A DNA stretch of 64,000 bases from an uncultured Actinomycetota bacterium (GCA_963801905.1 CAWDGP010000014.1:16215-80214); one strand, 5' to 3'; shown: positions 16,227 to 45,869, counted from the stretch's first letter. A program made the numbers and translations. Notes: generated by a model from the sequence alone, not told the origin.

Positions 16227-16250
16227 GTAGGGACGGCTACCGTCTCTACG

Positions 16251-27762: not shown

Positions 27763-27792
27763 TTGACACTGCCGCAAAGGGTGAATTATGGT
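27763..27792 (+). promoter_or_regulatory. Sigma-70-like promoter of the ABC/catabolic operon (TTGACA-N18-TATGGT)
   Basis: TTGACA at 27763-27768 and TATGGT at 27787-27792, read directly. Confidence 0.5.
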
Positions 27793-27808
27793 CCTGCTCC
27801 TTGCCCCA

Positions 27809-27823
27809 TGGGAACGATTCCAA
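27809..27823. promoter_or_regulatory. LacI-type operator candidate TGGGAACGATTCCAA
   Basis: Inverted arms TGGGAA/TTCCAA between the -10 element and the RBS. Shares TGGGAACG-TTCC with the perfect palindrome at 43490-43502. Confidence 0.5.
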
Positions 27824-27856
27824 CAGGCTTCGGCCTAATAGTGCAGAGGAGATGAA

Positions 27857-28981
27857 ATGAGCGAAGGACAGCGCAGCCCTCTCAGGGCTCGCACGTTTGT
27901 CAGCCTCAGCCTCATAGTTGTGCTCGGGGCGGCAGTGATCGCGATGCTCGCGTCAGGCGCAGGCGCGACGAAGTCGTCGAGGACCGCTGCACACAGCGGG
28001 CCGTACACGTTCGTGCTGAGCAACAACTTCCTCGGGAACGACTGGCGGCCCCAGGTCGAGCGCCTCGCCACGTTGACTTCCGGTGTCGCGCCGTTCAAGG
28101 GCAAGGTCACGATGAAGATCGTGAACTCCCAGAACACCAACCAGGCGCAGATCTCCGACCTCAACAACATCATTCAGACGAAGCCGGACGCGATCTTCCT
28201 CATCCCCGGCTCGACGACCGCGTTGAACCCGACGATCCAGCGCGCGTGTGACGCCGGGATCCTCGTGTTCACGCTGTCGGCGCCGGTGAACGTTCCGTGC
28301 GTCTACAACCTGAACGAGAGCTTCTACAACGGGAACTACGCGATGGGCGAGTGGATGGCGAAGGCTCTCGGCGGGAAGGGCAGCATCTTCCTCGACCAGG
28401 GGATCGCCGGGCTCGCGATCTCGAAGCAGATCGAGAACGGCTTCCTGGCCGGCCTGAAGAAGTACGGACCGAACATCAAGGTTGTCGGGAAGTACACGGG
28501 CCAGTACGCAGCCGGCCCCGAGCAGTCGGGCATCAGCAGCCTCCTCGCCTCGCATCCTGACGTGAACGGCGTGATGACGCAGGGCTACTGCACTCCCGTG
28601 TTCAACGCACTCAAGGCGGCCGGCAAGTCCGCGGTTCCCGCGGTTTGCTACGGCTACAACGGTGAGATGACCGCCTGCGCGCAGGGCCATCAGTGCGCCA
28701 TCCTCACCAACACCCCGGGCGAGGTCCAGCTCGCGATGAAGATGGCGCTGGACATCCTCAACGGGAAAGCCGCCCCGAAGCACGGCAACACGATCATCCC
28801 GTACCCGATGTACCTGTACGTCACGGCCTCGCCGCACGTGAAGCTCAACAGCACGGTGCCGGCGCAGGTGCTCAAGCAGAACGTGAACTACTTCCCGAAG
28901 CTCGCCGCGGGCCTGTCCCTTCCGTACACGTTGCCGCAGTACGCGAAGCAGATCACTCCGCAGCAGGCAGCAGGAAAGTAG
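27857..28981 (+). CDS. ABC transporter periplasmic sugar-binding protein (CUT2/RbsB-like)
   Basis: 374 aa with an N-terminal TM/signal segment and periplasmic-binding-protein type I pattern. GAGGAG RBS. Confidence 0.85.
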   Translation: MSEGQRSPLRARTFVSLSLIVVLGAAVIAMLASGAGATKSSRTAAHSGPYTFVLSNNFLGNDWRPQVERLATLTSGVAPFKGKVTMKIVNSQNTNQAQISDLNNIIQTKPDAIFLIPGSTTALNPTIQRACDAGILVFTLSAPVNVPCVYNLNESFYNGNYAMGEWMAKALGGKGSIFLDQGIAGLAISKQIENGFLAGLKKYGPNIKVVGKYTGQYAAGPEQSGISSLLASHPDVNGVMTQGYCTPVFNALKAAGKSAVPAVCYGYNGEMTACAQGHQCAILTNTPGEVQLAMKMALDILNGKAAPKHGNTIIPYPMYLYVTASPHVKLNSTVPAQVLKQNVNYFPKLAAGLSLPYTLPQYAKQITPQQAAGK

Positions 28982-29099
28982 CCAGACCAGGTAGAGAGCC
29001 AGGAGTCGTGACTCATGCAGCGCTGCCGGCGGGCCCCCAACCGCGGGGGCACGCCGGCAGGGCGTGCTACCGCTCGTCAGCGTTCGCGGGCGGGTCACC

Positions 29100-30617
29100 A
29101 TGAGCAACCCGGGCCCGCTCGTCATCACCGGCCTACAGAAGTCGTTCGGCGGTGTTCAGGCGCTGAGGGGAGCGAGCCTCACGTGCAAGCCGTCCGAGGT
29201 TCACGCGCTCATCGGTGAGAACGGCGCCGGCAAGAGCACACTCGTCAAGGTGCTCTCCGGCGCCCTGCGTGCGGACAGCGGCGAGATCGTCCTCGACGGG
29301 AGGCCCGTGCGACCGGAGTCGCCGCGCGAGGCGCGCGCAGCCGGAATCGGGACCGTCTTCCAGGAGCTCAGCCTCATTCCGGACCTCTCGGTAGCGAGCA
29401 ACCTCTTCTACGCGATCGAGCCCAAGGTCAGAGCCGGACGGATCGATCGTCGCGCGCTACGGCGCGCAGCCGCGGCCGCGCTCGACCGGTTCGGCGTCGT
29501 CCAGATCAAGACCGACGCCAACGTCCGTGAGCTCGCGCTGGGGGAGCGGCAGATCCTCGAGGTCTGCAAGGCCTTGCTGCGCGAGCCGTCGGTCCTGATC
29601 CTCGACGAGCCGACGTCAGCGCTCCTTCCCGAGCAGGTGGAGTGGCTGTTCGCAAAGGTGCGCGAGTTCGCCGCGGGCGGCGGCATCGCGCTCTTCATCT
29701 CGCACCGACTCGAGGAGATAGAGAGCCTCAGCGATCACGTGACGGTGCTGCGCGGAGGCGTCGATGTCGGCTCGGGCCCGATCGCCGAGATGTCCGAGGC
29801 GCGGCTGGTCGAGCTCATGCTCGGCCGCTCGGTGGACAGGGTCTTCCCCGCAGCCTCCCAGGATGCCAAGTCGGATGAGGTCGTCTGTGAGATCAGCAAC
29901 CTCGCATCGCCCCCTCGCCTCAAGGATGTCTCGCTCTCGATTCGCAAAGGCGAGATCGTCGGGGTGGGTGGGCTCCAGGGCCAGGGTCAGCTGCCGATGT
30001 TCCTCGCGCTCTTCGGCGTCATCCCGTCGAGCGGAAAGGTCGTCGTCGACGGCCGCACCGTCCGCCTGCGCCACCCGAGAGCAGCCCTCGACGCGGGGAT
30101 CGCACTCATTCCCGAGGACCGGGCGACCGAGGGGCTGTGCATGACGCTCAGCATCCGCGACAACATCTCGCTCGGCAGCCTCACCGAGCTCTCGTCGGGC
30201 GGGCTCGTGAATCCGACGCGGGAGCGGCGCGTGCTCGACTCGGCGGTCTCGAAGCTTCGGATCGCGCTCAAGGACGTCCGCCAGGAGGTCGCGGCGCTGT
30301 CCGGCGGGAACCAGCAGAAGGTGATTCTGGCACGGGTGCTCGCGCAGAAGCCTTCGCTCCTCTTGATGTACGACGCCACGCGCGGCGTCGACGTCGGCAC
30401 GAAGGCCGAGATCTACCGACTGATGCGCGAGCAGTGCGACGCGGGCAACTCGATCCTCTTCTACTCGACCGACGCCCAGGAGCTCGTCAACATGGCCGAC
30501 CGCGTCGTCGTTCTCCACGACGGCCGCATTCGTGCGCATCTCGAGGGGGTCGAGATCACGGAGAGCCGCATCGTCGCCGAGTCGGTCGGGGGCGGCGCCA
30601 GGAGCCAGGCCCGATGA
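29100..30617 (+). CDS. Sugar ABC transporter ATP-binding protein (duplicated ATPase, RbsA-like)
   Basis: GENGAGKST Walker A, second-domain signature LSGGNQQK, ILDEPTS. Confidence 0.9.
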   Translation: MSNPGPLVITGLQKSFGGVQALRGASLTCKPSEVHALIGENGAGKSTLVKVLSGALRADSGEIVLDGRPVRPESPREARAAGIGTVFQELSLIPDLSVASNLFYAIEPKVRAGRIDRRALRRAAAAALDRFGVVQIKTDANVRELALGERQILEVCKALLREPSVLILDEPTSALLPEQVEWLFAKVREFAAGGGIALFISHRLEEIESLSDHVTVLRGGVDVGSGPIAEMSEARLVELMLGRSVDRVFPAASQDAKSDEVVCEISNLASPPRLKDVSLSIRKGEIVGVGGLQGQGQLPMFLALFGVIPSSGKVVVDGRTVRLRHPRAALDAGIALIPEDRATEGLCMTLSIRDNISLGSLTELSSGGLVNPTRERRVLDSAVSKLRIALKDVRQEVAALSGGNQQKVILARVLAQKPSLLLMYDATRGVDVGTKAEIYRLMREQCDAGNSILFYSTDAQELVNMADRVVVLHDGRIRAHLEGVEITESRIVAESVGGGARSQAR

Positions 30618-31612
30618 CCGGCTCGCCCGAAGCCTTCACGGACACCGGCCGGCCGGAGTGGGTCGATCGGCTGAAGATCAACCCGGCGAAGCTGCCGTTG
30701 CTGATGCCGTACGTCTATGTCGCGGTGCTCACCGCGGCCGTGCTGATCCTCGAGCCCTCGCTCATCGACGGCCCGGGCGCGCTCACCGCGAACTTCGCGC
30801 TCGTGGTGCCGCTCGCGCTCGTCAGCTTCGGACAGACCCTCGTGATGCTCACCCGCGGTATCGACCTCTCGATCGGCGGCGTGATCAGCGTGAGCTCGGC
30901 GCTCCTTGCGACCCATCTCGCTGCGACGGGCTGGCTCCTCCTCCCGGAGCTCCTCCTTGTCGTTGCGCTCGGCGTTGCGATCGGCTTCCTCAACGGCGCG
31001 ATCATCGCCTTCACTCCGATCCAGCCCTTCATCGTGACGCTCGCGACCTGGTCGATCTGGGATGGCGTCGCGTTCGCGATCCTGCCGGTCGAAGGCGGGA
31101 CTGTCTCGCCGACGCTCATCTCGGCCGTGTCCGGGAGCCTGTTCGGCGTGCCGAAGTCGGTGTGGATCGTCATCGCACTCCTCCTGCTCTGGCGCTGGCT
31201 TCGCGCGACACGGCTCGTGGACGACCTCGTCGCGATCGGGAGCGACGAGAATCGCGCCCGCCTGCTGGGCGTCAGGACCGGGAGGCGAAAGCTCCAGGTC
31301 TACGCCATCTCCGGGCTTCTCGCGGCGCTCGCCTCCATCTGGGTGACGGGCCAGACTCAGGCCGGGTCGCCGAACGGCGGCGACCAGTTCATCCTCAGCT
31401 CGATCGCAGCGGTTGTGATCGGCGGCACGAGCATCTTCGGAGGCAAGGGCTCTGCGGCGAGCTCGATCATGGGCGCGATCGCGTTCCTGCTGATCCCGAT
31501 TCTCGTCTTCGCTCTCAACCTCACCTCGTTCTGGAGCATCTTCTTCCAGGGCCTGATCCTGATCGTGGCCGTCACGTTCAACTCGATCATCCAGACGAGG
31601 GCCCGCGGATGA
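30614..31612 (+). CDS. Sugar ABC transporter permease 1
   Basis: ATGA overlap with the ATPase stop. Hydrophobic RbsC-like protein (GIDLSIGG). Confidence 0.9.
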   Translation: MTGSPEAFTDTGRPEWVDRLKINPAKLPLLMPYVYVAVLTAAVLILEPSLIDGPGALTANFALVVPLALVSFGQTLVMLTRGIDLSIGGVISVSSALLATHLAATGWLLLPELLLVVALGVAIGFLNGAIIAFTPIQPFIVTLATWSIWDGVAFAILPVEGGTVSPTLISAVSGSLFGVPKSVWIVIALLLLWRWLRATRLVDDLVAIGSDENRARLLGVRTGRRKLQVYAISGLLAALASIWVTGQTQAGSPNGGDQFILSSIAAVVIGGTSIFGGKGSAASSIMGAIAFLLIPILVFALNLTSFWSIFFQGLILIVAVTFNSIIQTRARG

Positions 31613-32562
31613 TCGACTCGGCCATCGGCATCGCCCGGCGCAACATGTCGATCCTCCTCGCCTACGTCGTCGCCCTGATCCTCTTCGTGGTCGGAACCGC
31701 CCAGGCGACCGGGTTCGCGAGCTACGCGCACACGCGGACGGTCCTGATCACGGCGGCATTCGTCGGCCTCGTCGGCTTCGGGCAGACGCTCTGCATGCTC
31801 ACCGGCGGCATCGACCTCTCGATCCCGGCGAACGTCGCCGGAGCAGCCGTTCTCACGGCGTTCCTGGCGAACGGGGTCTCGAACCACCTCTACTGGATCG
31901 TTCCGATGGTCCTCGGATTCGGAGTGGTCGTGGGGCTGGTGAACGGGGTCGGCGTTGCCTACGCAGGCGTTCCGCCGATCATCATGACGCTCGGAATGAA
32001 CAGCGTCATCCAGGGCATCCTCCTCATCTACACGAACGGCGGGTTCGCGTCCGCGGCGCCGCCCGGACTCGTCGACTTCGTCAACGGCGACACCTTCGGC
32101 ATGTCGACGATGCTCCTGATCTGGGTCGGTGTCACGGTCGTCGCGACCGTGCTCCTCAGCCTGAGCACCTTCGGCCGGAGGCTCTACGCCGTCGGGACGA
32201 ACCCGACGGCAGCGCTCCTCGCGGGCGTTCGCGTCAAGCGCGTCACGGTCGTGCCGTACGTCGTCTCGGGTCTCGGGGCGGCACTGACCGGTGTCCTGCT
32301 CCTCGGCTTCCTCGGGCAGGCGTTCGTCAACATGGGCGACGAGTACCTCTTCGCCTCGGCCGTGGCCGTTGCCGTGGGGGGCGCCTCGATCCTGGGCGGC
32401 AAGGGCCACTACCTGGGGACAGTCGCCGGCGCCATCGTCCTGACTCTGATCGCCGCCAACCTCAACCTGCTTTCACTCGGCCAGTCGGCGATCCAGATCT
32501 CGTACGGCCTGATCCTGCTCGCAGCCGTGTACCTGGCGACGATCCAGCTCGGGAGGAGATGA
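31609..32562 (+). CDS. Sugar ABC transporter permease 2
   Basis: ATGA overlap. GGIDLSIPA. 317 aa, multi-TM. Confidence 0.9.
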   Translation: MIDSAIGIARRNMSILLAYVVALILFVVGTAQATGFASYAHTRTVLITAAFVGLVGFGQTLCMLTGGIDLSIPANVAGAAVLTAFLANGVSNHLYWIVPMVLGFGVVVGLVNGVGVAYAGVPPIIMTLGMNSVIQGILLIYTNGGFASAAPPGLVDFVNGDTFGMSTMLLIWVGVTVVATVLLSLSTFGRRLYAVGTNPTAALLAGVRVKRVTVVPYVVSGLGAALTGVLLLGFLGQAFVNMGDEYLFASAVAVAVGGASILGGKGHYLGTVAGAIVLTLIAANLNLLSLGQSAIQISYGLILLAAVYLATIQLGRR

Positions 32563-32563
32563 C

Positions 32564-33361
32564 GTGGGAGCGCTGGACGGAAAGGTGTGCGTCCTGGTCG
32601 GCGGGGGCGGCGGCATCGGCGAGGCGACCGCTGTCGCCTATGCCCGTGCCGGCGCTGCGGCCGTCATCGTTGCGGACATTCAGCCGGACCTCGCGGAGTC
32701 GGTCAGCGCGAGGGTCGGTGACCTTGGAACCGAGGCCTGGAGCACCCGAGTCGATGCGCTCGAGGAAGGCGCGCTCGACGCGCTCCTCGACGACGTCGTT
32801 CACCGGCACGGCCGCGTCGACGTCATGCACAACCTGACGAGCACCACCGTCCTGGTTGCGTCGACCGAGCTCCCACTCGCCGAGTTCGAGAAGGTCTTCC
32901 GCGCAACCGTGGTCGGCCAGTTCGCCGGGGCGCAGGCCGCGGCGCGCCGGATGATCTCGGACGGTCGAGGCGGCTCGATCATCAACATGAGCTCGATCGG
33001 CGGGCACGGCGGCCTCCCGCGGCGCGCCGCGTACACGGCAAGCGCTGCGGCGATCGTCAATCTCACGAAGACGCTGGCGGTGGAGTGGGCTCCGCACGCG
33101 ATCCGCGTGAACGCGATCGCGCCCGCCTGGATCCTCACCGACGCGCTCCGGGGCTACAACGCTGCCTTTCCGGGCGTCCTCGACTTCGACGCCCTCCGGG
33201 AGCGCGTCCCACTCGGACGGTTCGGCGAGCCGGAGGAGGTTGCCTCCGTCGCCGTCTTCCTGGCGAGCGACGCCAGCAGCTTCGTGACGGGCACCACGAT
33301 CCTCGCCGACGGCGGGGTCGTCGCGTACATCGGGCCCGGAGGGAGACCCAGCGACCAGTGA
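32564..33361 (+). CDS. SDR-family oxidoreductase with an atypical active site (YTASA instead of YxxxK)
   Basis: VLVGGGGGIGEA Rossmann motif, NMSS, AAYTASAAAIVNLTK, IRVNAIAP. Confidence 0.85.
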   Translation: MGALDGKVCVLVGGGGGIGEATAVAYARAGAAAVIVADIQPDLAESVSARVGDLGTEAWSTRVDALEEGALDALLDDVVHRHGRVDVMHNLTSTTVLVASTELPLAEFEKVFRATVVGQFAGAQAAARRMISDGRGGSIINMSSIGGHGGLPRRAAYTASAAAIVNLTKTLAVEWAPHAIRVNAIAPAWILTDALRGYNAAFPGVLDFDALRERVPLGRFGEPEEVASVAVFLASDASSFVTGTTILADGGVVAYIGPGGRPSDQ

Positions 33362-33388
33362 ACGAATGCGAAGAAGGGGCGTGAGAGC

Positions 33389-34525
33389 ATGAAGGTGTTC
33401 GGCAGCGAGATCGCCAGATCGGAGCTGCTCCGGCGGGTCGGGAACCTGGCCCAGGTCGGGAGCGTGGAGCTCCTCTCCCATGAGCAGGGCTACGCCCGCG
33501 GAGCCAGGTTCCTCGACTTCCGTACGGGGAGCGGATTCCGGTTCACCGTCAACGTCGATCGGGGCATGGATCCCGGGTACGCGGAGTTCAACGGCGCCTC
33601 GCTCGCGTGGCTGCCTCCGAAGATCTTCCCGGCGCCGTCCTTCTGGGAGAACGACGACCACGCCTGGGTCCGCTTCGTCCTCGGCGGCCTCTGCAACACC
33701 GCGGGGCTCGTCACGATCGGCAACCCGCAGACGGTGGATGTCTCGCACTTCAAGTTCCACTCGAGGAACGACGATCGTTACGGGACCCACGATCGCGTCG
33801 CCATCCTCCCGGCGAGCCACTTCAACTTCGGGGAGCGCTGGGAGGGGGATCGCTGCTTCCTCTGGGCCGAGGGCACCGTCCGGCAGGAGATCACCTACGG
33901 AGAGAACCTTCTGTTGACGAGGCGCTACGAGACGGAGCTCGGCGCGAGCTCGTTCTCGCTCCGGGACGTCGTCCGCAACGACGGCTTCTACCCGGCGCCG
34001 CATCAGCTCCTCTACCACTTCAATATCGGCTATCCGGTCGTGGACGACGGGGCGGAGCTGCTCGCCGCGGCCGCAGGTACGGTCGGAGGCTCGATCTTCG
34101 AGGAGGAGCAGAAGGCGCCGGACCGGTACCGGCAGTTCACCGGGCCCGAGCAAGGGTTCTTCGCGGAAGGGTTCGAGATCCCGATGCTCACGGGCACGGA
34201 CGGCCTCGTCGGAGCGGCGGTCGTGAACCGCGGCTTCGGCGGTCTCGACGGCGGCCTCGGCGTCTACGTCCGCTACGACCCGTCGACGCTGCCCGTCTAT
34301 CTCGAGTGGCGGATGATGGGAGAGGGGTTGTACGCGGTGGGGATGGAACCTTCGACAAACCCCTTCAAGGCGATCCCGGAACTGGTCGAGGAGGGCTATC
34401 CCGTGATGCTGGAGCCGGGCGAGGAGCGCGTGTACGCGCTCGAATTCGGGGTTCTCGCGGGCGGGAGCGAGATCGATGCGTTCGCCCGGTCTCTTCCCGT
34501 CGCCGATGCGAGGTCGCTCTCATGA
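33389..34525 (+). CDS. DUF4432 / aldose-1-epimerase-like (mutarotase-fold) protein
   Basis: 378 aa. DRGMDPGYAEFNG, LLYHFNIGYP, EWRMMGEGLYAVGMEP pattern. Confidence 0.65.
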   Translation: MKVFGSEIARSELLRRVGNLAQVGSVELLSHEQGYARGARFLDFRTGSGFRFTVNVDRGMDPGYAEFNGASLAWLPPKIFPAPSFWENDDHAWVRFVLGGLCNTAGLVTIGNPQTVDVSHFKFHSRNDDRYGTHDRVAILPASHFNFGERWEGDRCFLWAEGTVRQEITYGENLLLTRRYETELGASSFSLRDVVRNDGFYPAPHQLLYHFNIGYPVVDDGAELLAAAAGTVGGSIFEEEQKAPDRYRQFTGPEQGFFAEGFEIPMLTGTDGLVGAAVVNRGFGGLDGGLGVYVRYDPSTLPVYLEWRMMGEGLYAVGMEPSTNPFKAIPELVEEGYPVMLEPGEERVYALEFGVLAGGSEIDAFARSLPVADARSLS

Positions 34526-35598
34526 CGGACATCGTGATTCCCTCGGCGGGCATCGCGATGGAGGAAGCCATGGTGGTCAAATGGCACAAGGCGCCCGGCG
34601 ACACCGTCGCGGCCGACGAGCCGGTCGTCGAGATCGAGACGGACAAGGCGACGATGGACGTCGTCAGTCCGGTCGCCGGCCGGCTGGGCCCTCATCTCGC
34701 CGAGCCCGGCGATGTGGTGGCCGTAGGCGCGGCGATCGTGCGTGTTCTGACCGAAGAGGCGGTGCCCGAGCCGGCCCGCGCACCCGAGCCCGACGAGTTG
34801 GCTTCCTCGACCGGTGCGAGCTCACCGTCGTTCGACGAGCCCGAGCCGGAGCGTGCCTCGACCGGCGGCGGGAGCGACGCTCTCGCCCGCGCGCCTCATG
34901 CGCTCAGCCCGAGAGCGCGCCGGCTCGAGCGGGAGCGGACGGACCACCCGCCGCAGGCCGCTCCGTCCCGGGGACGCTTTCGCGGCCTGATCGCGACGAA
35001 GGTCGCCGAGTCGTGGCGAGAGATCCCGCACTTCACGGTCTCGAGGGAGATCGACGCGGAGGAGATGTCCGTCGCGCTCGAGCAGGAACGGGCACGTGGA
35101 ATCGAGCCCCTCCCGTCCTTCACGGACATGCTCTTGCGTGCACTCGCCGAGGCGCTGCAGGAGAACGGCGCGGACGGTGCGGTCGACCTCGGGCTCGCTG
35201 TCGCGACTCCCGACGGGGTCGTCGTCCCGGTGGTCCAGGATGTCCTCGGCCACAGCCTCGCGGAGCTTGCAGCCGCCCGGCAGGCAGCGGTCACGCGGGC
35301 GCGAACCGGACGGCTCGCGTCGGAAGACCTGAACGTCACGCCGATGTCGACGCTCTCGAACCTCGGGTCGTTCGGCGTCGACCGCTTCACCGGGATCGTT
35401 GCGCTCGGGCAGACGACGCTGCTCACCGTGGGCCGGGCGCGGCCGCGGGTCGTCGCCGACGATCGCCGGGCCATCAGCGTGCGTCTCACGTTCGACGCCA
35501 CCGTCAACTCGGATCACCGGGCACTGGACGGTGCAGACGCGGCGCGGCTGCTCTCCTCCTTCGCCGCCGCGGTCGAGCGAACCACCTCACCCACCTAG
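34522..35598 (+). CDS. Dihydrolipoamide acyltransferase (E2) component of a 2-oxoacid/acetoin dehydrogenase-type complex
   Basis: Lipoyl domain VEIETDKATMDV. The subunit-binding region is short and degenerate (LSPRARRLERERTD). Catalytic VNSDHRALDG. ATGA overlap with the upstream gene. Confidence 0.85.
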   Translation: MTDIVIPSAGIAMEEAMVVKWHKAPGDTVAADEPVVEIETDKATMDVVSPVAGRLGPHLAEPGDVVAVGAAIVRVLTEEAVPEPARAPEPDELASSTGASSPSFDEPEPERASTGGGSDALARAPHALSPRARRLERERTDHPPQAAPSRGRFRGLIATKVAESWREIPHFTVSREIDAEEMSVALEQERARGIEPLPSFTDMLLRALAEALQENGADGAVDLGLAVATPDGVVVPVVQDVLGHSLAELAAARQAAVTRARTGRLASEDLNVTPMSTLSNLGSFGVDRFTGIVALGQTTLLTVGRARPRVVADDRRAISVRLTFDATVNSDHRALDGADAARLLSSFAAAVERTTSPT

Positions 35599-35616
35599 AC
35601 AGGAGAGTCGACGACC

Positions 35617-37649: not shown

Positions 37650-37659
37650 CGCTCCGGGG

Positions 37660-38640: not shown

Positions 38641-39482
38641 TCGCGCTCTCCCTCGGGTCTCGTGAGCTCGCTGACGGCTGGTGGCCGGCCCTTCGTCCCG
38701 CCTGCATTCATCGCCAGGTTCCCCCCGTCGACGGGCAGGAGCACGCCGGTGACCATCGACGCCGCGTCGGAGACGAGGAAGATCACGGGCCCTACCATCT
38801 CGCGCGGCTCACCGAGCCGGTTCAGCGGGATGCCCGAGAGGAACTTCTCGCGGATCGCACCGAGCGACGGGTCGTCGAGCCGGTGGCGAAGGCCCGGCGT
38901 GAGGAACTGGCAGGGCTGGATGGCGTTCACTCGTATCCCGTGGCCGGCCCACTCGACGGCGAGCTCCTTCGTCATCGTTGCGATGGCGCCCTTGGACGCG
39001 CTGTAGGGAAATGACCCTCGGCCCACTCCGGAGGTCCCGGCGATCGAGCACATGTTCATGATCGAGCCGCCGCGCCCGCTCGCGATCATGCGCCGCCCCG
39101 CCTCGCGACAGCAGAGGAAATAGCTCGTGGTGTTGATGCGGAATGCCTTCTCCCAATCGTCGAGCGTGAGCTCCTCCGGGGCCCCGAACGTCGGGGTATA
39201 GGCGAGGTTGACGAGGATGTCCACCCGGCCGAAGCGCTCGTCCACCGCTGCGAAGGCCTCGGTGACGGCTCGCTCGTCCGATGCATCGGCGGGGAGCACG
39301 AGCGCCGCCCGTCCCTCGGCCTCGACCCCCGCCGACGAGGCGTTCAGCGTCTCCTCGTCGATGTCCAGCAGCGCGACGTCCGCGCCGAACGCGGCAAGCC
39401 CGGTGCAGATCGGCGTACCCAGCCCACCGCCGGCCCCCGTCACGACGGCGACCCGCCCGGTGAGGTCGAAGAGGTCGTTCAT
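38637..39482 (-). CDS. SDR-family oxidoreductase (canonical YxxxK)
   Basis: From ATG 39482: MNDLFDLTGRVAVVTGAGGGLG.., PYSASKGAI, IRVNAIQP. The start overlaps the upstream stop. Confidence 0.9.
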   Translation of the reverse strand: MNDLFDLTGRVAVVTGAGGGLGTPICTGLAAFGADVALLDIDEETLNASSAGVEAEGRAALVLPADASDERAVTEAFAAVDERFGRVDILVNLAYTPTFGAPEELTLDDWEKAFRINTTSYFLCCREAGRRMIASGRGGSIMNMCSIAGTSGVGRGSFPYSASKGAIATMTKELAVEWAGHGIRVNAIQPCQFLTPGLRHRLDDPSLGAIREKFLSGIPLNRLGEPREMVGPVIFLVSDAASMVTGVLLPVDGGNLAMNAGGTKGRPPAVSELTRPEGERE

Positions 39483-40447
39483 CACGCGCCTTCCGAGAGC
39501 TCGCCGGCGTTCACGATCGTCGGGACGGGGTCGCCGTTCAGGTAGGCGCTGCATCTCTCCGCGAGGAGCCGTCTGACCATGACGAGGGCCGTCTCGGAGT
39601 ACCACGCATCGTGGTTCGTCAGCACGAGGTTGGGTGCGGAGAGAATCGGATCGGAAGGGTCGGGCGGCTCGACCGGGAGCACGTCGAGCGCGGCGCCTGC
39701 GATCACTCCCCCGTGGAGCGCCGTGGCGAGGGCCGCAGTGTCGACGAGGCCGCCGCGAGAGACGTTGATGAGATATGCCGTCCGTTTCATCGAGCCCAGA
39801 CGGTTCCGATCGACCAGGTTGGCGGTCTCGGCGGTGAGTGGGCAGTGAAGGGACACCACGTCGGCTTCCGAGAACAACTCTTCGAGCGAGACCATCTGGA
39901 CCCCGGTCGGGGAGGAAGCCACGTCGTGGGCGATCACCCGGTCGAAGAAGGGCCCGAGCAGGCGGGCGACCTCGGCCCCGATCCTTCCGACGCCGACGAG
40001 CCCGAGCGTGCAGGTGGAGAGCCGCTCGACCGGACGAAGGTCGCTCCACGCGCCCCAGCGGCCGTCGTCGATGAGCTCACGGGAGCGGAGGACCCGGCGC
40101 ACCAGGGCGAGCGCCACGGCTGCGGTGTGGGTGGCGACTTCCTCGATGCAGTAGTCGGGGACGTTGATGACGGCGATCCCGCGGCGGCTCGCGGCTGCAA
40201 CGTCGACGTTGTCGACACCGACGCCGTATCGGCCGATCACTCGCCATCCCGGGCATCGCTCGATCACGCTCTCGTCGATGCGACCGTACTGGACGAGCAC
40301 GCCGTCGGCATCCCCGGCAGCACCTACGATCGCGTCGCCCGACACGCCTCCGGCGTCCTCGACCATGACACCGTGTGCCGCCGCCGCTTCCGATTCGATC
40401 GTGATGTCGGCAAAAGGCGCGTCCAACACGACGAGGCGCCCGCTCAA
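39482..40447 (-). CDS. D-isomer-specific 2-hydroxyacid dehydrogenase family protein
   Basis: TTG 40447 is preceded by GGAGGA. GLVGVGRIGAEVA, INVSRGGLVD, LDVLPVEP, TNHDAW. TTGA overlap with the upstream stop. Confidence 0.85.
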   Translation of the reverse strand: MSGRLVVLDAPFADITIESEAAAAHGVMVEDAGGVSGDAIVGAAGDADGVLVQYGRIDESVIERCPGWRVIGRYGVGVDNVDVAAASRRGIAVINVPDYCIEEVATHTAAVALALVRRVLRSRELIDDGRWGAWSDLRPVERLSTCTLGLVGVGRIGAEVARLLGPFFDRVIAHDVASSPTGVQMVSLEELFSEADVVSLHCPLTAETANLVDRNRLGSMKRTAYLINVSRGGLVDTAALATALHGGVIAGAALDVLPVEPPDPSDPILSAPNLVLTNHDAWYSETALVMVRRLLAERCSAYLNGDPVPTIVNAGELSEGA

Positions 40448-41250
40448 CGCACGTCCTCCGCCAGGTAGTCGTGCAGTATGCGGCCGGCGACGAGCGTGAA
40501 GTCTGCCCGCCAGAAGAACCCCTCCAGCGGCTCGACGACGGGCAGCCGCCAGACCGGCGCCTGGACGTTCGGCCGCAGCTCGACGCTGCACGGTCCGGTC
40601 CAGCACTCGTGGACGACCACGTCGGTCAAGCGCCGCGCCGTCAGCTGGCGAATCCCCGGCGTCCCGTCGATCTGCGGGATGAGCTTGTAGTTCAGGTTCT
40701 CGGTGAAGTCGAAGTGGCGCTTCATGTCGGCGGGGTCGGCCGCCCGCTGTTTGTACGGAAAGGTTGCCCTGAGGATCGTGATGCCGTTCCGCTCGACCTC
40801 GCCGACGATCAGGTCGCCGCGCGCTTCGAGCTCGAGCGCGGCGAGCTTCTTCGGCTGCCCGTGCACCTCGCGCCCATGGGCCACCCCGACGTCGGAATCG
40901 AGGTAGAGCGCGGTCGAGTAGCCGCCGTCGACGACGAGGCCGTCGCGGCTGAAGCGGGCCCCGACCATCACATTGCACTCGAGAGCCTGACCGACGAAGT
41001 CCGTGTCGGGCATCCGGTAGATGTGGGCCAGAACGACGTCCCCCAGGGGCTCCAGCGGAGGTGGGAGCAGCCGCTCGACTGCGGCTCGGTCCGTGCGCCA
41101 CGCCACCGTCAGGATGGAAACGTCTCGAAAGGCCAACGGGAACGGCGGGACGAGCGGCGCGTCCCACGGGAAGGAGAAGGGCCCGGAACCGGTGCCCGCG
41201 TCGACGAGGGGCTCGCCCGCGAAGGGTGCCCCGCGCCAGGGGCTATCCAT
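40444..41250 (-). CDS. Acetoacetate decarboxylase (ADC)-family protein
   Basis: From ATG 41250: MDSPWRGAPFAGEPLVDAG..PFPLAFRDVSILTVAWRTD..YLDSDVGVAHGREVHGQPKK... ADC-family length and pattern. Confidence 0.75.
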   Translation of the reverse strand: MDSPWRGAPFAGEPLVDAGTGSGPFSFPWDAPLVPPFPLAFRDVSILTVAWRTDRAAVERLLPPPLEPLGDVVLAHIYRMPDTDFVGQALECNVMVGARFSRDGLVVDGGYSTALYLDSDVGVAHGREVHGQPKKLAALELEARGDLIVGEVERNGITILRATFPYKQRAADPADMKRHFDFTENLNYKLIPQIDGTPGIRQLTARRLTDVVVHECWTGPCSVELRPNVQAPVWRLPVVEPLEGFFWRADFTLVAGRILHDYLAEDVR

Positions 41251-42394
41251 TGGCGAACCTGGCGACGGTGTCCCAGTTCCAGACGAGCCCGAGCCCGGGC
41301 CGATCGGGCAGCACGGCCCGGCCGTCGCGAATCTCCAGGGGCTCGTCGAGCAGCGTTTCCAGGGCATCGAGCCCCGAGTCCGGGGGCATGTACTCGAGCC
41401 CGGCGGGGTGCAGGTTCGAGAGGGCGGCTCCGAAGTGGACGTGCACGTTCGCGTGAACGTGCATGGACACAGGAAGCGCGCGAGCCGAAGCCAGAGCGGT
41501 TGCAGCCATGAGCTCTCGCACGCCGCCGGCCACCGTTGCGTCGCACCTGACGACGTCGACTGCGTCAGAGTCCAGAAGGTCGCGAAAGGCCCGGTGGCCG
41601 GTGAGGTTCTCGCCGAGCCCGATGGACATGCCCGACCGGCGCCGCAGGTCGCGAACGAGCGGCGCCGCCGTCTCCGAGAACGGATCCTCGACGTACGACA
41701 GGTCGTAAGGCTCGAGGAGGCGCAACCTGTGGAGCGCGTCCTCCAGGCCGCGGAACGTTCGGAAGGCGTCGACGACGAGCAGGGTGTCGTCGCCGACCAC
41801 CTCGCGGACGGCTTCGAGCCTCGAGGCGTCCAGCTGGGGTGAGCCGGCACCCACTGTCACCTTGACGGCGGTGCACCCGAGCTGCATGAAGGCGCCCATC
41901 TCCTCCTGAAGCCCCTCGAGCGGAGAGATTCCCTGGCGTACGTAGCCTCCCACGGCGCAGACCGGAACCTCGCTGCGCGACCTCCCGAGGAGATCGGCGA
42001 GCGGGAGCCCCGCCCGCTGTCCGAGGATGTCCCAGAGGGCGAGGTCGATCGCGCTGGCCGCGACTGTGAACAGGCCGCGCTCGGCGTAGGGCCAGTAGGC
42101 TCCCGCGAGCCGCGCGCGAATCGATTCGGGCTCCGTCGCGTCGGCGCCCACCAGGAGTGGTGCGAGTGAGCCCTCGACGATCGCGGCGACGGGGAGGCCC
42201 CGTGCGAATGCGTACGCGGCTCCGTCGAGCCCTGTCTCCGTCCGGATGCGTACGACCGCGTATGAGCGGCGGTCCACCACCGCGTCGCCGACGAGCAGCG
42301 GCCGCGGAAGCGGGACACTGCAGTCGAAGCACGCGACCTCCCGGATCGGGTCCGGGTCGAGGACGCGCGGTGCTTCGATGCCCTCGGGCCTCAC
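41243..42394 (-). CDS. Enolase-superfamily enzyme (mandelate racemase/muconate lactonizing family; probable acid-sugar dehydratase)
   Basis: From GTG 42394 (GTGA overlap with the lacI stop): ..AIDLALWDILGQRAG, VKVTVG, LVVDAF, YVEDPF, VRCDAT. Confidence 0.85.
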   Translation of the reverse strand: MRPEGIEAPRVLDPDPIREVACFDCSVPLPRPLLVGDAVVDRRSYAVVRIRTETGLDGAAYAFARGLPVAAIVEGSLAPLLVGADATEPESIRARLAGAYWPYAERGLFTVAASAIDLALWDILGQRAGLPLADLLGRSRSEVPVCAVGGYVRQGISPLEGLQEEMGAFMQLGCTAVKVTVGAGSPQLDASRLEAVREVVGDDTLLVVDAFRTFRGLEDALHRLRLLEPYDLSYVEDPFSETAAPLVRDLRRRSGMSIGLGENLTGHRAFRDLLDSDAVDVVRCDATVAGGVRELMAATALASARALPVSMHVHANVHVHFGAALSNLHPAGLEYMPPDSGLDALETLLDEPLEIRDGRAVLPDRPGLGLVWNWDTVARFANG

Positions 42395-43449
42395 GACAGA
42401 CTGAGCACACCGGCCGGGGCGGCTGTGGATCCTTCTACCTTCAGGGTCATGCGCACCACCTCCGTGCGCGGGGGGCGGCCGGGCGTCTCGAGACGGGATG
42501 TGATCATGCGAGCGGCCCTGAGTGCGAGCTCGTCGATGGGTCGCGAGATGACCGTGAGCTGGGGCCGCTTGACCGATGCGAGCTCGCTCTCGTCGAAGGC
42601 GACGAGCGAGACATCTTCGGGGACGCGCAGGCCCTTGTTGTCGAGGTATTCGAGGACTCCCGCGGTGATCGAGTTCGGGACACAGCAGAGTATCGCCGTC
42701 GCGCGCCTGTCCAGCATCTGCTCGGCGATCTCCCATCCCGATCCTCGGTCGATCCGGTGATACGGGACGACGACCTCGATCGCCGGCATGAGCCCGAGGC
42801 GCTCGACAGAGTCGCTGAACGCGGAGATCGCCTCGCGCCCCGGTCGCACGTCCTGGCTGATCGTGGCGATACCCACCATGCGGTGCCCGAGCGCAGCGAG
42901 GTGCTCGAGGGCACGCTCGATCCCGGCGCGCTGATCCGTCAGCACCACGTCCGCGACGACGCCCGGAATCTCGCGATCGAGGAGGACGAGCGGCCGCGAG
43001 AACGACGCCAGGCGGGCGGACAGCCCCGGCTCGTGCTCGTTGATCAACGACACGAGCAGCCCATCGACGCTTCGCTCGCGAAGGGACTCGAGCGACAACT
43101 GCTCCCCCGCGACGTCCCAGCCGGAGCTCGCGATCACGAGGCCGATGCCCGACCGGCGGAGGTCTTCCTCGATCACCTCCGCGATCTTGCTGAAGACGTC
43201 GTTGCTGATTGCGGGGACGAGAAGCCCGACGAGCCGGCTGCGCGTCGTGCGGAGGCCGCGAGCTGCGTTGTTGGCGCGGAAATCGAGGCGCGCGACAGCC
43301 TCGAGAACCCGCTCCCGGGTCACGCCGGCGACGTGAGGGGAGCCGTTCAGGACACGCGAGACCGTGGACTTCGAGACGTGCGCCTCCCGCGCCACGTCGA
43401 GAATGGTTGAGTCCCTGTCGCCGCGCGCACGTGTCGCGCTCATCGTCAC
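42391..43449 (-). CDS. LacI-family transcriptional regulator
   Basis: HTH ILDVAREAHVSKSTVSRVLNG plus a periplasmic-binding-fold effector domain. 352 aa. Confidence 0.9.
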   Translation of the reverse strand: MTMSATRARGDRDSTILDVAREAHVSKSTVSRVLNGSPHVAGVTRERVLEAVARLDFRANNAARGLRTTRSRLVGLLVPAISNDVFSKIAEVIEEDLRRSGIGLVIASSGWDVAGEQLSLESLRERSVDGLLVSLINEHEPGLSARLASFSRPLVLLDREIPGVVADVVLTDQRAGIERALEHLAALGHRMVGIATISQDVRPGREAISAFSDSVERLGLMPAIEVVVPYHRIDRGSGWEIAEQMLDRRATAILCCVPNSITAGVLEYLDNKGLRVPEDVSLVAFDESELASVKRPQLTVISRPIDELALRAARMITSRLETPGRPPRTEVVRMTLKVEGSTAAPAGVLSLS

Positions 43450-43488
43450 GCCTCTCGTCCGACCTCGTCACCGCACGGTCCACCGCTC

Positions 43489-44562
43489 GTGGGAACGTTC
43501 CCTACCATACGATGCCGAGTCGGGGAGCGCAAGCGAGCACCGATCTTGACGACAGGACGGACGGACAGTGACGAGGAGTTCCTCACGACCGAGACGGTCG
43601 GTCCCTACCTCGTCGACCGTGGCGTCTTCTCGCCTGCAGATGAGTTGAGGATCGCAGAGCTCGGCGGAGGTGTCTCGAACATCGTCCTGCGCGCTGAGAG
43701 CCCGGCCCGAGCTGTCGTCCTCAAGCAGGCGCTCCCACGCCTTCGCGTCGCCGACGAGTGGCTTGCCAACCGCGAGCGAGCGATCAACGAGGCCGAGGCG
43801 CTGCGTCTCGTCGGCGGGATCACCCCGGATCGTGTCCCTGTGCTCGTCGATCTCGACCGCGAGCGGTGTGCGCTCGTCACGAGTGCCGCACCGGTGGGAT
43901 CGACGAGCTGGAAGAGCAGGTTGTTGGACGGCGATGCGGATCCTCGGATCGCCCGGAGTCTCGGCGAGATCCTCGCCCGCTGGCACGCGACCACCCTCCT
44001 CGACGAGCAGGTCCGCGCCCTCTTCCCGGATACGGTCTTGTTCGACCAGCTGAGAGTCGACCCCTATTACCGTGCGACCGCAGCGCGCCGGCCCGACCTC
44101 GCGCGTCACATCGAGGGGTACGTCGAGCGAATGCAGCGCATCCGTCTCTGCCTCGTGCACGGCGACTTCTCGCCGAAGAACGTGCTCGTCGGCGATGGCA
44201 TCTGGGTGATCGACTTCGAGGTCGCGCACGTCGGCGACCCCTTGTTCGACGTCGCGTTCATGCTGACTCACTTGCTGCTGAAACGAGTACACATGCCCGG
44301 GATTCGCAACGTCGAGCAGAGCGTCCGAGCGTTCTGGGCTGGATATGAGGGAGCTGTGCCGGAGGCCCTTCGTCCCGACCGGCGATACCTCTTCGGGCAG
44401 CTCGGATGCCTCATGGTCGCCCGCATCGACGGGAAGTCCCCGGTCGAGTATCTCTCCGATCGCGAGCGGGTCACAGTCGCCGAGCTCGGCTCATCGCTCC
44501 TCAGGGATCCGCCCGACTCGATCGATGCCGTCCTCCGTCTCGTCGGTGCGAGCCTCACATGA
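43489..44562 (+). CDS. APH-fold (aminoglycoside/methylthioribose-kinase-like) small-molecule kinase; true start may be TTG 43546
   Basis: ELGGGVSNIVLR, LVHGDFSPKNVL (HxDxxxxN), VIDFEVA. GTG 43489 lies inside the operator palindrome. Confidence 0.75.
   Translation: MGTFPTIRCRVGERKRAPILTTGRTDSDEEFLTTETVGPYLVDRGVFSPADELRIAELGGGVSNIVLRAESPARAVVLKQALPRLRVADEWLANRERAINEAEALRLVGGITPDRVPVLVDLDRERCALVTSAAPVGSTSWKSRLLDGDADPRIARSLGEILARWHATTLLDEQVRALFPDTVLFDQLRVDPYYRATAARRPDLARHIEGYVERMQRIRLCLVHGDFSPKNVLVGDGIWVIDFEVAHVGDPLFDVAFMLTHLLLKRVHMPGIRNVEQSVRAFWAGYEGAVPEALRPDRRYLFGQLGCLMVARIDGKSPVEYLSDRERVTVAELGSSLLRDPPDSIDAVLRLVGASLT
43490..43502. promoter_or_regulatory. LacI-type operator: perfect 12-bp palindrome GGGAACGTTCCC (T-GGGAAC|GTTCCC)
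   Basis: Read directly in the 40-100 bp divergent region between lacI and the kinase gene. CG centre, as in LacI/GalR operators. Confidence 0.6.
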
Positions 44563-45869
44563 CGCTCTCGATCCGCGACCTGCGGGCACACGAGATCCTC
44601 GACTCGGGAGGCCGTCCCACGATCGAGGCGGAGGTAGAGCTCGCCGACGGGACGACCGCCCGCGCGAGCGTGCCGGCCGGGACGTCGACCGGTCAGCACG
44701 AGGCGCATGAGCTCCGCGATGGGGACAGGAGCCGCTACGACGGGCAGGGTGTCCTTCGGGCGGTGGCAGCCGTCGAGGAGACGATTCGCCCGGCCGTCCT
44801 GGGTCTCGATCCGCTCGATCAAGCCGGTCTCGACGCCACGCTCATCGAGCTCGACGGCACCGAGAGCCGCTCACGTCTCGGCGCGAACGCCATGCTCGCA
44901 GTCTCCACCGCCGTCGCCCGCGCTGCAGCCGCAGCGAGCCACATTCCGCTGTGGCGCCACCTGGGGGGCGGGACGTTGCTCCCGACGCCGATGGTCAACA
45001 TCATCAGCGGCGGCCTTCATGCCGAGGGAGAGCTGCCGTTCCAGGATTTCATGGTGATGCCGCTCCGAGGATCGACCTTCCGTGAGGCGCTCGAGACGGT
45101 CGCCGCCGTCCGCACCGCCACCGGCCGCCTGCTCGCCGAGCGCGGCCTGTCGACGTTGAAGGCGGCCGAAGGAGGATTCGGGCCGGCACTCGCGAGTCCC
45201 GCGAGCGCCCTCGAGATCCTCGTCGAGGCCATCGAACGCGCCGGGCTCACCCCCGGCGTCGACGTCTCGATCGCGATCGATGTCGCCGCAACCCATTTCT
45301 ACGACGGAACCGCGTACAGGCTTCCAGGTTCGACCGGGAACGTCGACTCGGATGCGATGATCGAGCTGCTCGCCCAGCTTGTCGAGGCGTATCCGATCGG
45401 GTCGATCGAGGACGGCCTGGCCGAGGACGACTGGGGTGGGTGGGCCAGGCTGACGGAGCGTCTGGCCTCCCGGGTTCAGCTCGTCGGCGACGACCTCTTC
45501 ACCACACGGGCCGAGCGGCTCTCGCGCGGCATCGAGAGCGGGGTCGCGAATGCCGTGCTCGTGAAGATGAATCAGATCGGGACGGTGACCGAGACGATCG
45601 CCATCGTCGGCCAGGCGCGGGCGGCCGGCTACGCGACGGTCGTCTCGGCGCGCTCCGGCGAGACCGAGGACGACTTCATCGCCGACCTTGCCGTCGCCGT
45701 GTCAGCCGGCCAGATCAAGATCGGATCGCTGGCGCAGTCCGAGCGCCTCGCGAAGTACAACCAGCTGCTGCGAATCGAGAGGTCGCTCGGCGCCACGGGA
45801 AGGTTCGCGGGGAGCGAGGCCATCGCGCCGTCGGGCACGTCGACGCCGAGGCCGAGCTCGCGGTCGTAG
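44559..45869 (+). CDS. eno: Enolase-family protein (phosphopyruvate hydratase paralogue with SARSGETED instead of SHRSGETED)
   Basis: ILDSGGRPTIEAEV, PAGTSTGQHEAHELRDGD, KMNQIGT, GQIKIGSLAQSERLAKYNQLLRIE. ATGA overlap with the kinase stop. Confidence 0.85.
   Translation: MTLSIRDLRAHEILDSGGRPTIEAEVELADGTTARASVPAGTSTGQHEAHELRDGDRSRYDGQGVLRAVAAVEETIRPAVLGLDPLDQAGLDATLIELDGTESRSRLGANAMLAVSTAVARAAAAASHIPLWRHLGGGTLLPTPMVNIISGGLHAEGELPFQDFMVMPLRGSTFREALETVAAVRTATGRLLAERGLSTLKAAEGGFGPALASPASALEILVEAIERAGLTPGVDVSIAIDVAATHFYDGTAYRLPGSTGNVDSDAMIELLAQLVEAYPIGSIEDGLAEDDWGGWARLTERLASRVQLVGDDLFTTRAERLSRGIESGVANAVLVKMNQIGTVTETIAIVGQARAAGYATVVSARSGETEDDFIADLAVAVSAGQIKIGSLAQSERLAKYNQLLRIERSLGATGRFAGSEAIAPSGTSTPRPSSRS

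Follow-up and report, generated by a model that had tools for sequence, protein, structure and literature searches.

We analyzed a 64,000-nucleotide (nt) stretch of DNA from an uncultured Actinomycetota bacterium (GCA_963801905.1 CAWDGP010000014.1:16215-80214; G+C 70%), hereafter the window, in which positions 27763-45869 hold 17 clustered genes for sugar uptake, catabolism and regulation, together with two palindromes. Coding-frame analysis from third-position G+C (GC3) and Pfam searches confirmed all 17 genes and their families, including every family named in an earlier interpretation of this DNA made from the nucleotides alone (the sequence-only reading). On comparative evidence, we consider it fairly probable that the stretch forms one LacI-controlled catabolic regulon, with its 17 genes in three transcription units, which would serve the oxidative, non-phosphorylative breakdown of a monosaccharide.

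The first unit lies on the plus strand and runs from a sugar-binding protein (SBP) through an ABC ATPase, two permeases, SDR1, a DUF4432 protein and E2 to E1 alpha and E1 beta. Its promoter, read directly and also recovered by a promoter scan, consists of TTGACA (27763-27768) and TATGGT (27787-27792) separated by an 18-nt spacer, and a ribosome-binding site (RBS), GAGGAG (27846-27851), read directly, precedes the ATG of the SBP gene at 27857. By Pfam, the transporter genes encode a CUT2-type SBP (Peripla_BP_4; 27857-28981) with a signal- or anchor-like N-terminus, an ATPase with two ABC_tran domains (29100-30617) and two BPD_transp_2 permeases (30614-31612 and 31609-32562, frames from GC3). 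They are followed by SDR1 (32564-33361), an atypical SDR with the nucleotide motif GGGGGIG and the sequence YTASA in which the catalytic Lys is replaced, and by the DUF4432 protein (33389-34525; Pfam 225 bits), which has a galactose-mutarotase-like fold. The remaining genes of this unit encode an E2 acyltransferase whose lipoyl and catalytic domains carry ETDKA and DHRALDG, respectively (34522-35598), a thiamine pyrophosphate (TPP)-dependent E1 alpha (35617-36663) and an E1 beta (36660-37649), both assigned by Pfam.

The second unit occupies the minus strand in the order lacI-MR/MLE-ADC-2HADH-SDR2-epimerase. The LacI-family repressor gene (42391-43449; PF00356 57 bits, PF13377 91 bits) more likely starts at the ATG at 43443 than at 43449, with GAGAGG 7 nt upstream, and it is followed by genes that Pfam assigns to an MR/MLE enolase-superfamily enzyme of acid-sugar dehydratase type (41243-42364), a protein with the acetoacetate decarboxylase (ADC) fold (40444-41250), a D-2-hydroxyacid dehydrogenase (2HADH; 39482-40432), SDR2, a classical SDR with an intact YSASK (38637-39482), and an extended SDR of the 'NAD epimerase/dehydratase' family (37660-38640). 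The third unit, on the plus strand and divergent from lacI, is a pair of genes for an MtnK-fold kinase of the APH family with intact HGDxSPKN and DFE motifs (43546-44562) and for an enolase paralogue, here termed Eno* (44559-45869), whose start overlaps the kinase stop and which carries the substitutions E168D, H373A and T397I. The longest open reading frame of the kinase, from GTG 43489, would overlap the palindrome upstream; TTG 43546 is the most likely start, giving 338 residues, a length as in homologues.

Direct reading bore out both palindromes reported earlier: a perfect 12-bp CG-centred palindrome (43491-43502) in the divergent region between lacI and the kinase gene, read there as TGGGAACGTTCCC at 43490-43502, and a near-copy, TGGGAACGATTCCAA (27809-27823), between the TTGACA-N18-TATGGT promoter and the RBS. 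We delimit the corresponding putative operators as O2 (TGGGAACGTTCCCT, 43490-43503) and O1 (TGGGAACGATTCCA, 27809-27822), the latter about 17 nt downstream of the transporter -10. The transporter promoter itself reached 10 of 12 matches in the promoter scan, against 0.1 expected in shuffles. With up to one mismatch, TGGGAACGNTYCC occurs in the 64 kb at only the two reported places (shuffles give 0.5, and one of 100 shuffles equalled the count), and GGGANCGNTCCC gives one perfect and three one-mismatch matches, only the two reported sites lying upstream of cluster genes; no further operators were found inside the window's cluster at up to one mismatch. Neither a lacI nor a kinase promoter reached the threshold of the consensus scan. 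The lacI promoter is too weak for such a scan and is proposed from hexamers conserved in orthologues: TTGCGC (43532-43527), a 17-nt spacer and TATGGT (43509-43504) on the minus strand. O2 starts 2 nt beyond this -10, and 43 nt separate its end from the kinase start codon, so that one bound dimer would cover the lacI start and any kinase promoter; control of the kinase-Eno* unit is suggested solely by this 43-nt distance. Between O1 and the RBS, the predicted 5'-untranslated region also contains a 4-bp stem with a UUCG tetraloop (AGGC-UUCG-GCCU; AGGC-TTCG-GCCT in the DNA, plus strand, 27825-27836), which may act as a stabilizer of that region; 'ggcttcggcc' recurs upstream of the SBP gene in L001-L004, L013 and L028, and L003 has two copies of the hairpin there.

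To assess the conservation of these sites, we collected the genomic surroundings of DUF4432 homologues, 80 loci in all, and located the 17 proteins of the window on them, with column conservation expressed as the mean frequency of the commonest base and with flanks of 45 nt on either side; the loci closest to the window, L028 (CAVTYN01) and L001 (CAVRQF01), were read over 21 kb each. Among 13 non-redundant loci whose LacI is 41-100% identical to that of the window, the 12-mer GGGAACGTTCCC directly follows a conserved TAT(G/T)(G/C)T -10 upstream of lacI, with GGGATCGTTCCC in its place in one locus. Conservation at this lacI-side operator is 0.99 over 12 columns versus 0.45-0.46 in the flanks, and the promoter hexamers, TTG...TAT(G/T)(G/C)T, are held in register. 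Similarly, in 11 non-redundant loci the sequence GGGAACG(A/G)T(T/C)CC stands between the transporter promoter and the SBP RBS at 0.95 versus 0.47-0.49 in the flanks, always downstream of a TTGAC(A/T)-type promoter, and the hexamers of that promoter, TTGAC(A/T) and a TAT/TAG type, recur in orthologous loci. Every one of the 15 loci whose LacI orthologue reaches 55% identity or more has the motif, which may also be written TGGGAACGNTYCCA, 27-134 nt upstream of lacI, and perfect conservation of the lacI-side site just after the -10 extends to loci with LacI identity as low as 55%. Two distant orthologues (L024, 41%, and L078, 38%) keep both the motif and the recognition helix; VSK(S/T)TVSRVLN in the helix (VSKSTVSRVLN in the window) and AAR(G/S)LRT in the hinge (AARGLRT in the window) are conserved down to 38-41% identity. 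In two Acidimicrobiales variants, L006 and L008, whose fetched stretches contain no LacI orthologue, no site of this kind precedes the more distant SBP gene. Additional operator-like sites, with no counterpart in the window, occur at 4110 and 10979 in L005, at 4096 and 10980 in L012 and at 9932 in L009; they lie about 230 nt upstream of the SBP gene, at the DUF4432 3' end 156 nt before E2, and, in L009, 69 nt upstream of DUF4432.

We regard the palindromes as very probable operators because they are conserved in other genomes, which is decisive beyond the window statistics. The shared LacI-type operator proposed by the sequence-only reading thus holds at the level of predicted binding: both sites are conserved islands in diverged intergenic DNA and track the LacI orthologues. 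This strongly supports the palindromes as operators of the cluster's LacI-type repressor, and one repressor probably switches the cluster through the two conserved sites. That they are instead bound by another regulator, or are not operators at all, is extremely unlikely. TetR (27068-27673) and XRE-TPR (~45.9-47.3 kb) regulator genes both flank the cluster, one on either side among otherwise housekeeping genes, and the chance expectation for palindromes within a single window is not negligible; however, the motif is promoter-proximal in all loci, follows the LacI orthologues into loci of differing gene content (L024, L027), and has the architecture of the LacI family. Its consensus, TGGGAAC|GTTCCCA, matches the CG-centred LacI/GalR layout TGnnAAC|GTTnnCA, which both window sites fit, and in LacI-family proteins it is the hinge Leu, that of the conserved AAR(G/S)LRT, that makes contact with the central CG of the operator. 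The regulatory design is ordinary LacI biology. As in known LacI/GalR regulons (GalR with galOE, GTGTAAACGATTCCAC; RbsR; CcpA-cre), an HTH_LacI domain is joined to a periplasmic-binding-protein-type effector domain, a 14-bp CG-centred palindrome overlaps promoters or lies just downstream of them, and autoregulation, divergent-promoter control and a CUT2 ABC transporter as first target recur. Unlike in those regulons, the half-site TGGGAAC is specific to the orthologue group of the window's LacI, and this LacI reaches no NCBIfam equivalog (RbsR, 190 bits versus a cut-off of 382).

The genes also stay together across genomes. In about 12 Actinomycetota metagenome-assembled genomes (MAGs) labelled Solirubrobacterales, Conexibacteraceae, Thermoleophilia and Gaiellales, the full set is found in the same order at 55-96% protein identity (15-17 genes each in L001-L005, L010, L012, L013, L016, L017, L028 and L031), and despite rearrangements the 17 genes still lie together in about 15 Actinomycetota MAGs as well as in proteobacterial contigs. 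The rearranged loci include L007; L009, in which the lacI unit is divergent from the transporter unit; L015, in which Eno-kinase and lacI-MLE-ADC-2HADH come after E1 beta; and L006, L040, L082 and L096, in which the genes are shuffled and partly lack LacI or ADC. This persistence supports the earlier proposal that the three units form one functional set. The kinase, Eno* and 2HADH could alternatively constitute an independent module for C3-acid assimilation beside an unrelated sugar cluster, so that the 17 genes would not be one pathway. The kinase-enolase pair does occur in non-sugar settings: in Rhizobium N324 and Rhodococcus its neighbours are acyl-CoA dehydrogenases and 3-hydroxybutyryl-CoA dehydrogenase, and in Azospirillum a TRAP transporter, PhyH and Fe-ADH. 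The ADC-2HADH clusters of Shinella and Chelativorans, moreover, have no kinase-enolase pair within 14 kb. We nevertheless regard the separation as improbable, given that the pair keeps company with MR/MLE, E1/E2, epimerase, SDR2 and 2HADH through independent rearrangements (L006, L015, L040, L082, L096) and, in at least eight loci, lies divergent to lacI across a common operator region.

At family level the transporter is a CUT2 sugar ABC system. Its SBP scores 43 bits against the RbsB model (cut-off 337), and the nearest solved structure, 4pe6 (E 5e-31), is listed as 'Putative ABC transporter' with its ligand not readable. The DUF4432 protein matches PDB 3ty1 (E 3e-18), and its predicted structure, which at a moderate pLDDT of 65 is informative for fold class only, matches 3ty1 and then GalM structures. 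Elsewhere DUF4432 proteins are found with CUT2 ABC systems, MR/MLE dehydratases, Gfo/Idh/MocA enzymes, 2HADHs and one SGL lactonase. The SDR1 gene always adjoins DUF4432, and the earlier label 'atypical SDR' is apt: the Lys of the classical Ser-Tyr-Lys catalytic YxxxK is lost both here and in all actinobacterial orthologues, which have YTASA, one Devosia and one planctomycete orthologue having YTxSR. The best models for SDR2 are of the gluconate-5-dehydrogenase, KduD and glucose-1-dehydrogenase types, all under cut-off. The MR/MLE enzyme is nearest to, and remote from, L-talarate/galactarate dehydratases (the best NCBIfam match, 171 bits versus a cut-off of 500), arabinonate dehydratase and 3,6-anhydro-L-galactonate cycloisomerase, with 3msy, 4h83, 5xd7 and 2pp0 as PDB neighbours. 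In combination, the CUT2 transporter, the mutarotase-like fold, the SDRs, the MR/MLE enzyme and the contexts of DUF4432 elsewhere are a signature of oxidative non-phosphorylative sugar catabolism.

Among the known systems nearest to it are the non-phosphorylative diketo-hydrolase pathways for L-rhamnose and L-fucose, in which LRA1-3, 5 and 6 act as mutarotase, 1-dehydrogenase, lactonase, MR/MLE dehydratase, SDR 4-dehydrogenase and FAH hydrolase. The window shares with them a mutarotase-type protein, SDR dehydrogenases, an MR/MLE dehydratase and ABC uptake, and clusters related to that of the window carry FAH, SGL lactonase and RhaM. In contrast to those pathways, the window has neither lactonase nor FAH, and it adds an ADC-fold enzyme, a CtBP-type 2HADH, E1/E2, the MtnK-fold kinase and the enolase paralogue; the dehydratase and SDR families of the diketo-hydrolase route are present without an equivalog being reached, the MR/MLE enzyme lying far under every equivalog cut-off. 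The work on Ltn3D (PMC12994016) shows no more than that 3-keto aldonates, which belong to the beta-keto acids, can be formed by an SDR.

The ADC-fold protein is one of two members of the cluster to pass a curated threshold (NCBIfam subfamily, 165 versus 150). Aligned to CaADC, it keeps the Schiff-base Lys115-Lys116 (GQPKKL) and E76, and has V and H in place of R29 and E61, both of which are conserved in three solved ADCs; R29 of CaADC probably has a role in binding the substrate carboxylate. Like the acetoacetate decarboxylase family (CaADC and CvADC, and the divergent Sbi00515 and MppR), it has the full-length ADC fold, the PKK motif and E76; unlike that family, it stands in a context of sugar-acid catabolism and always adjoins a 2HADH, and its relationship to Sbi00515 and MppR is remote (E 0.003-0.05). 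On plasmids of Chelativorans and Shinella, orthologues 62% identical to it immediately precede a CtBP-type 2HADH gene, and the window 2HADH, whose relatives in cultured strains are named 'C-terminal binding protein', is about 41% identical to these neighbours. The surroundings there comprise a different MR/MLE (26% identity), a RhaM mutarotase, a rhamnose-type ABC transporter, and Gfo/Idh/MocA, AP_endonuc_2 and SDR genes, and further ADC contexts resemble these. Among the loci examined, ADC and the FAH hydrolase are roughly alternative to each other.

The E1/E2 genes resemble those of pyruvate and acetoin dehydrogenase complexes in comprising E1 alpha, E1 beta and an E2 with lipoyl-Lys and DHRxxDG motifs. 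They differ in that all three subunits fall under the curated pyruvate dehydrogenase (PDH) cut-offs: E1 alpha, whose nearest structure is human PDH E1 alpha, scores 304 bits against TIGR03182 (cut-off 394), E1 beta 316 against NF006667 (321) and E2 149 (722). Moreover, they are embedded in a sugar operon beside SDR1 and DUF4432 across phyla and have no E3 gene in the cluster; no dihydrolipoamide dehydrogenase gene was seen in 27.7-45.9 kb or in the flanking reading frames scanned, and one could lie elsewhere in the genome. The sequence-only reading had described a TPP/lipoyl C-C cleavage module here; with E1 beta so little below its cut-off, these genes might simply encode a dedicated pyruvate dehydrogenase. 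A change of the TPP motif of E1 alpha from GDG to GEG was considered as a signature and rejected, as both D and E occur among orthologues. L040, a proteobacterial-type variant, encodes a fusion of a lipoyl domain to E1 alpha (10070-11479), with no separate E2 gene in the 13 kb fetched.

The kinase and Eno* form the most promising lead in the cluster. The kinase model (pLDDT 92) superposes on MtnK structures 2pyw and 2olc with Foldseek TM values of 0.80-0.84 at about 20% identity, and against the MtnK model TIGR01767 the kinase stays below the cut-off, with 70 bits versus 275 in its N-terminal part only. In 11 of 11 independent contexts examined, in bacteria and haloarchaea, it adjoins an enolase paralogue; the pair was seen in soil contigs, Halomarina, Haladaptatus, Rhodococcus, Rhizobium, Burkholderia, Methylobacterium, Paracoccus and Azospirillum, often with an FAH hydrolase alongside and with the phosphoenolpyruvate (PEP)-using enzymes ppc, PPDK and a PEP_mutase-family protein as further neighbours. 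Metagenomic kinase-enolase and FAH-kinase fusion proteins exist.

Eno* passes the TIGR01060 enolase cut-off (544 versus 300 bits), and in the catalytic set of enolase (yeast numbering S39, H159, E168, E211, D246, E295, D320, K345, H373, R374, S375, K396) it departs at E168D and H373A, with T397I in addition; the remaining residues are retained, including the metal ligands, K345, E211, K396 and R374/S375. Changes at these positions recur in every kinase-linked paralogue examined. From Actinomycetota to Alphaproteobacteria and haloarchaea, the kinase-linked enolases share E168D, H373A/C/G and T397I/V (among them those of the window, L006, L015, L040, L081, L082, L084, L086-L088 and P0362), always with an MtnK-fold kinase; D168 was found in 16 of 16 and His373 in 0 of 16 checked at both positions, versus E and H in the two canonical enolases aligned. 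In enolase, E168 and H373 surround the C3-OH, or C3 hydroxymethyl group, of the substrate, and the residues that Eno* retains carry out proton abstraction and the binding of carboxylate and phosphate. With these catalytic residues retained and the C3-side residues altered, the same beta-elimination on a 2-phospho acid with a differing C3 side is suggested; the predicted product would be PEP or an analogue, formed from a 2-phospho acid that differs at C3 from D-2-phosphoglycerate. With the non-phosphorylative Entner-Doudoroff branch and the glucarate/galactarate pathway, in which glycerate 2-kinase is followed by enolase, the window would share the phosphorylation of a C3 hydroxy acid and its further conversion, most likely to PEP, by a member of the enolase family. 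Unlike in those routes, the kinase here has the MtnK/APH fold, not that of GarK, MOFRL or plant-type glycerate kinase, and a dedicated paralogue carrying E168D and H373A serves as the enolase.

From the gene families, the conserved operators, the synteny, the recurring modules and the signatures in the active sites described above, we infer a scheme for repressor binding, substrate, order of steps and individual reactions. The LacI repressor would bind the two 14-bp CG-centred operators. At O2 it would block lacI-MR/MLE-ADC-2HADH-SDR2-epimerase, making LacI autoregulated, and would also overlap any promoter of the divergent kinase-Eno* pair, and at O1, just downstream of the strong transporter promoter, it would act as a roadblock; a sugar or pathway intermediate presumably releases it. 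The CUT2 ABC system would then import a neutral monosaccharide, which the mutarotase-like DUF4432 protein (anomer handling) and an SDR or the extended-SDR dehydrogenase would convert to an aldonate, the MR/MLE enzyme would dehydrate to a 2-keto-3-deoxy acid, and SDR2 would oxidize further. Schiff-base-dependent C-C cleavage or decarboxylation by the ADC-fold enzyme could follow, a step that the FAH hydrolase would perform in related clusters. A C3 hydroxy-acid product would pass through 2HADH, the MtnK-fold kinase and Eno* to PEP, and the PDH-like E1/E2 would turn pyruvate, or a pathway-specific 2-oxo acid or acyloin, into an acyl-CoA. Overall, the putative system would couple monosaccharide import to oxidative non-phosphorylative breakdown, yielding pyruvate or acyl-CoA plus PEP. 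We regard this general class of catabolism as likely, and each single step as tentative at best.

Several observations weigh against this scheme. Within the window alone, the two operator sites stand modestly above chance, and the consensus scan found no kinase promoter. SDR1, without its catalytic Lys, may not be a dehydrogenase. Neither a lactonase nor an FAH hydrolase is present in the window cluster, both occurring in related loci, and the hydrolase-type step in the window would depend on a putative role of the ADC-fold protein, whose closest solved relatives are true acetoacetate decarboxylases. SDR1, DUF4432, E1 alpha and E1 beta are adjacent even in a Devosia MAG, and in the proteobacterial-type locus L096 a lipoyl domain is fused to E1 alpha (15228-16640), no E2 gene being called in the ~20 kb fetched; the adjacency and the fusion together suggest that E1/E2 catalyzes a pathway-specific TPP step rather than acting as a plain pyruvate dehydrogenase. 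Finally, with E168D and H373A conserved in Eno*, a phospho-intermediate other than ordinary D-2-phosphoglycerate is indicated.

Apart from Eno* and, at subfamily level, the ADC-fold protein, nothing encoded in the cluster scores above an NCBIfam cut-off, and the curated models name no pathway; likewise, no description of the pathway or of the enzyme set was found in the literature searched by full text. The claim of the sequence-only reading that this enzyme combination is not a described pathway therefore stands, within the curated models and the literature searched. The chemistry might nonetheless be ordinary, a variant of a known Entner-Doudoroff-like or diketo-hydrolase route for a common hexose under the same regulation, with E1/E2 as a dedicated pyruvate dehydrogenase, the kinase as a new-fold D-glycerate 2-kinase and Eno* as a normal 2-phosphoglycerate enolase. 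This would account for FAH lying beside the kinase or joined to it, a pattern that the release of pyruvate and glycerate by FAH would lead one to expect, and agrees with the ALDH, SGL lactonase, IlvD/UxuA and MR/MLE dehydratases around kinase-enolase pairs, with the adjacent ppc and PPDK, with an Eno* score far over the TIGR01060 cut-off and with an E1 beta almost at that of PDH. D-glycerate is, moreover, the simplest candidate for the kinase substrate, but it leaves the dedicated altered enolase unexplained: were the product D-2-phosphoglycerate, such an enzyme would be needless, yet it travels with the kinase everywhere seen, sometimes fused, and D168 with a residue other than His373 marks every kinase-linked enolase checked. 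The ADC fold, too, has no role in known routes. We therefore hold an ordinary route to be rather doubtful.

We also considered, and rejected, a sulfoquinovose pathway in which the kinase would phosphorylate 3-sulfolactate and Eno* would eliminate sulfite to give PEP; conversion of sulfolactate through phosphosulfolactate to PEP and sulfite would be the reverse of the coenzyme M steps ComA and ComB. Such chemistry would explain an enlarged C3 pocket in Eno* and could give the mutarotase-like protein, the dehydrogenase and the dehydratase a place in the route, and a GH31 gene adjoins the kinase-enolase pair in L084. That GH31 protein, however, lacks the sulfonate-binding R301, W304 and Y508 of E. 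coli YihQ, no sulfite exporter or sulfite-oxidizing gene lies in the window flanks, none is evident in the neighbour gene tables of other kinase-enolase contexts, and no such route was found in the literature searched, which leaves this alternative very improbable.

A further possibility, which we advance tentatively, is that the kinase and Eno* constitute a previously unrecognized two-step route of bacteria and haloarchaea from a 2-hydroxy acid other than D-glycerate to PEP or an analogue, with ADC as a Schiff-base enzyme that cleaves C-C bonds or decarboxylates and E1/E2 cleaving a sugar-derived 2-oxo acid or acyloin. Candidate kinase substrates would be L-glycerate, a 3-substituted lactate or a C4 2,3-dihydroxy acid. 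If correct, the window would encode a new pathway of sugar oxidation in which three or more of the enzyme activities are new. More generally, the enzyme set, undescribed in the curated models and the literature searched, probably holds new enzyme functions, the regulon type, oxidative sugar catabolism, being known.

Uncultured soil Actinomycetota (Solirubrobacterales and Gaiellales-type MAGs) commonly carry the cluster, and it touches on the question of which sugars, of plant or microbial origin, these abundant organisms live on. The cluster unites families without a described function, namely DUF4432, the Lys-less SDR, an ADC-fold enzyme in a sugar context, an MtnK-fold kinase and a modified enolase; the names 'aminoglycoside phosphotransferase', 'phosphopyruvate hydratase' and 'acetoacetate decarboxylase', which annotation pipelines now give to members of this set, are probably misleading. 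Two sub-modules are also carried on plasmids of cultured Rhizobium, Shinella, Chelativorans, Paracoccus, Rhodococcus, Burkholderia, Azospirillum and haloarchaea, so that their functions are directly testable.

Some minor features were also observed. The E1 beta and epimerase genes converge with their ends 10 nt apart (37649-37660), with no terminator-like structure between the operons. A GH76 (alpha-1,6-mannanase family) gene (16251-17312) and a 6-phosphogluconolactonase-type gene (55904-56578) lie in the flanks, with no link to the cluster seen. A PhyH gene follows E1 beta in L009, L010, L016 and L017 and stands between the ABC genes and E2 in L026. On plasmid p1 of Azospirillum brasilense Sp7 (L099, ~2-11.3 kb), kinase-Eno* occurs with a PEP_mutase-family protein, Fe-ADH, TRAP DctPQM, a PhyH dioxygenase and GntR. 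The kinase family numbers about 740 representatives after clustering at 50% identity (E 1e-30 or better), and in the metagenome proteins P0362, P0485, P0396, P0395 and P0473 the kinase is fused to an enolase, FAH hydrolase, PfkB kinase, FGGY kinase or PEP_hydrolase-like domain, possibly as gene-call artefacts.

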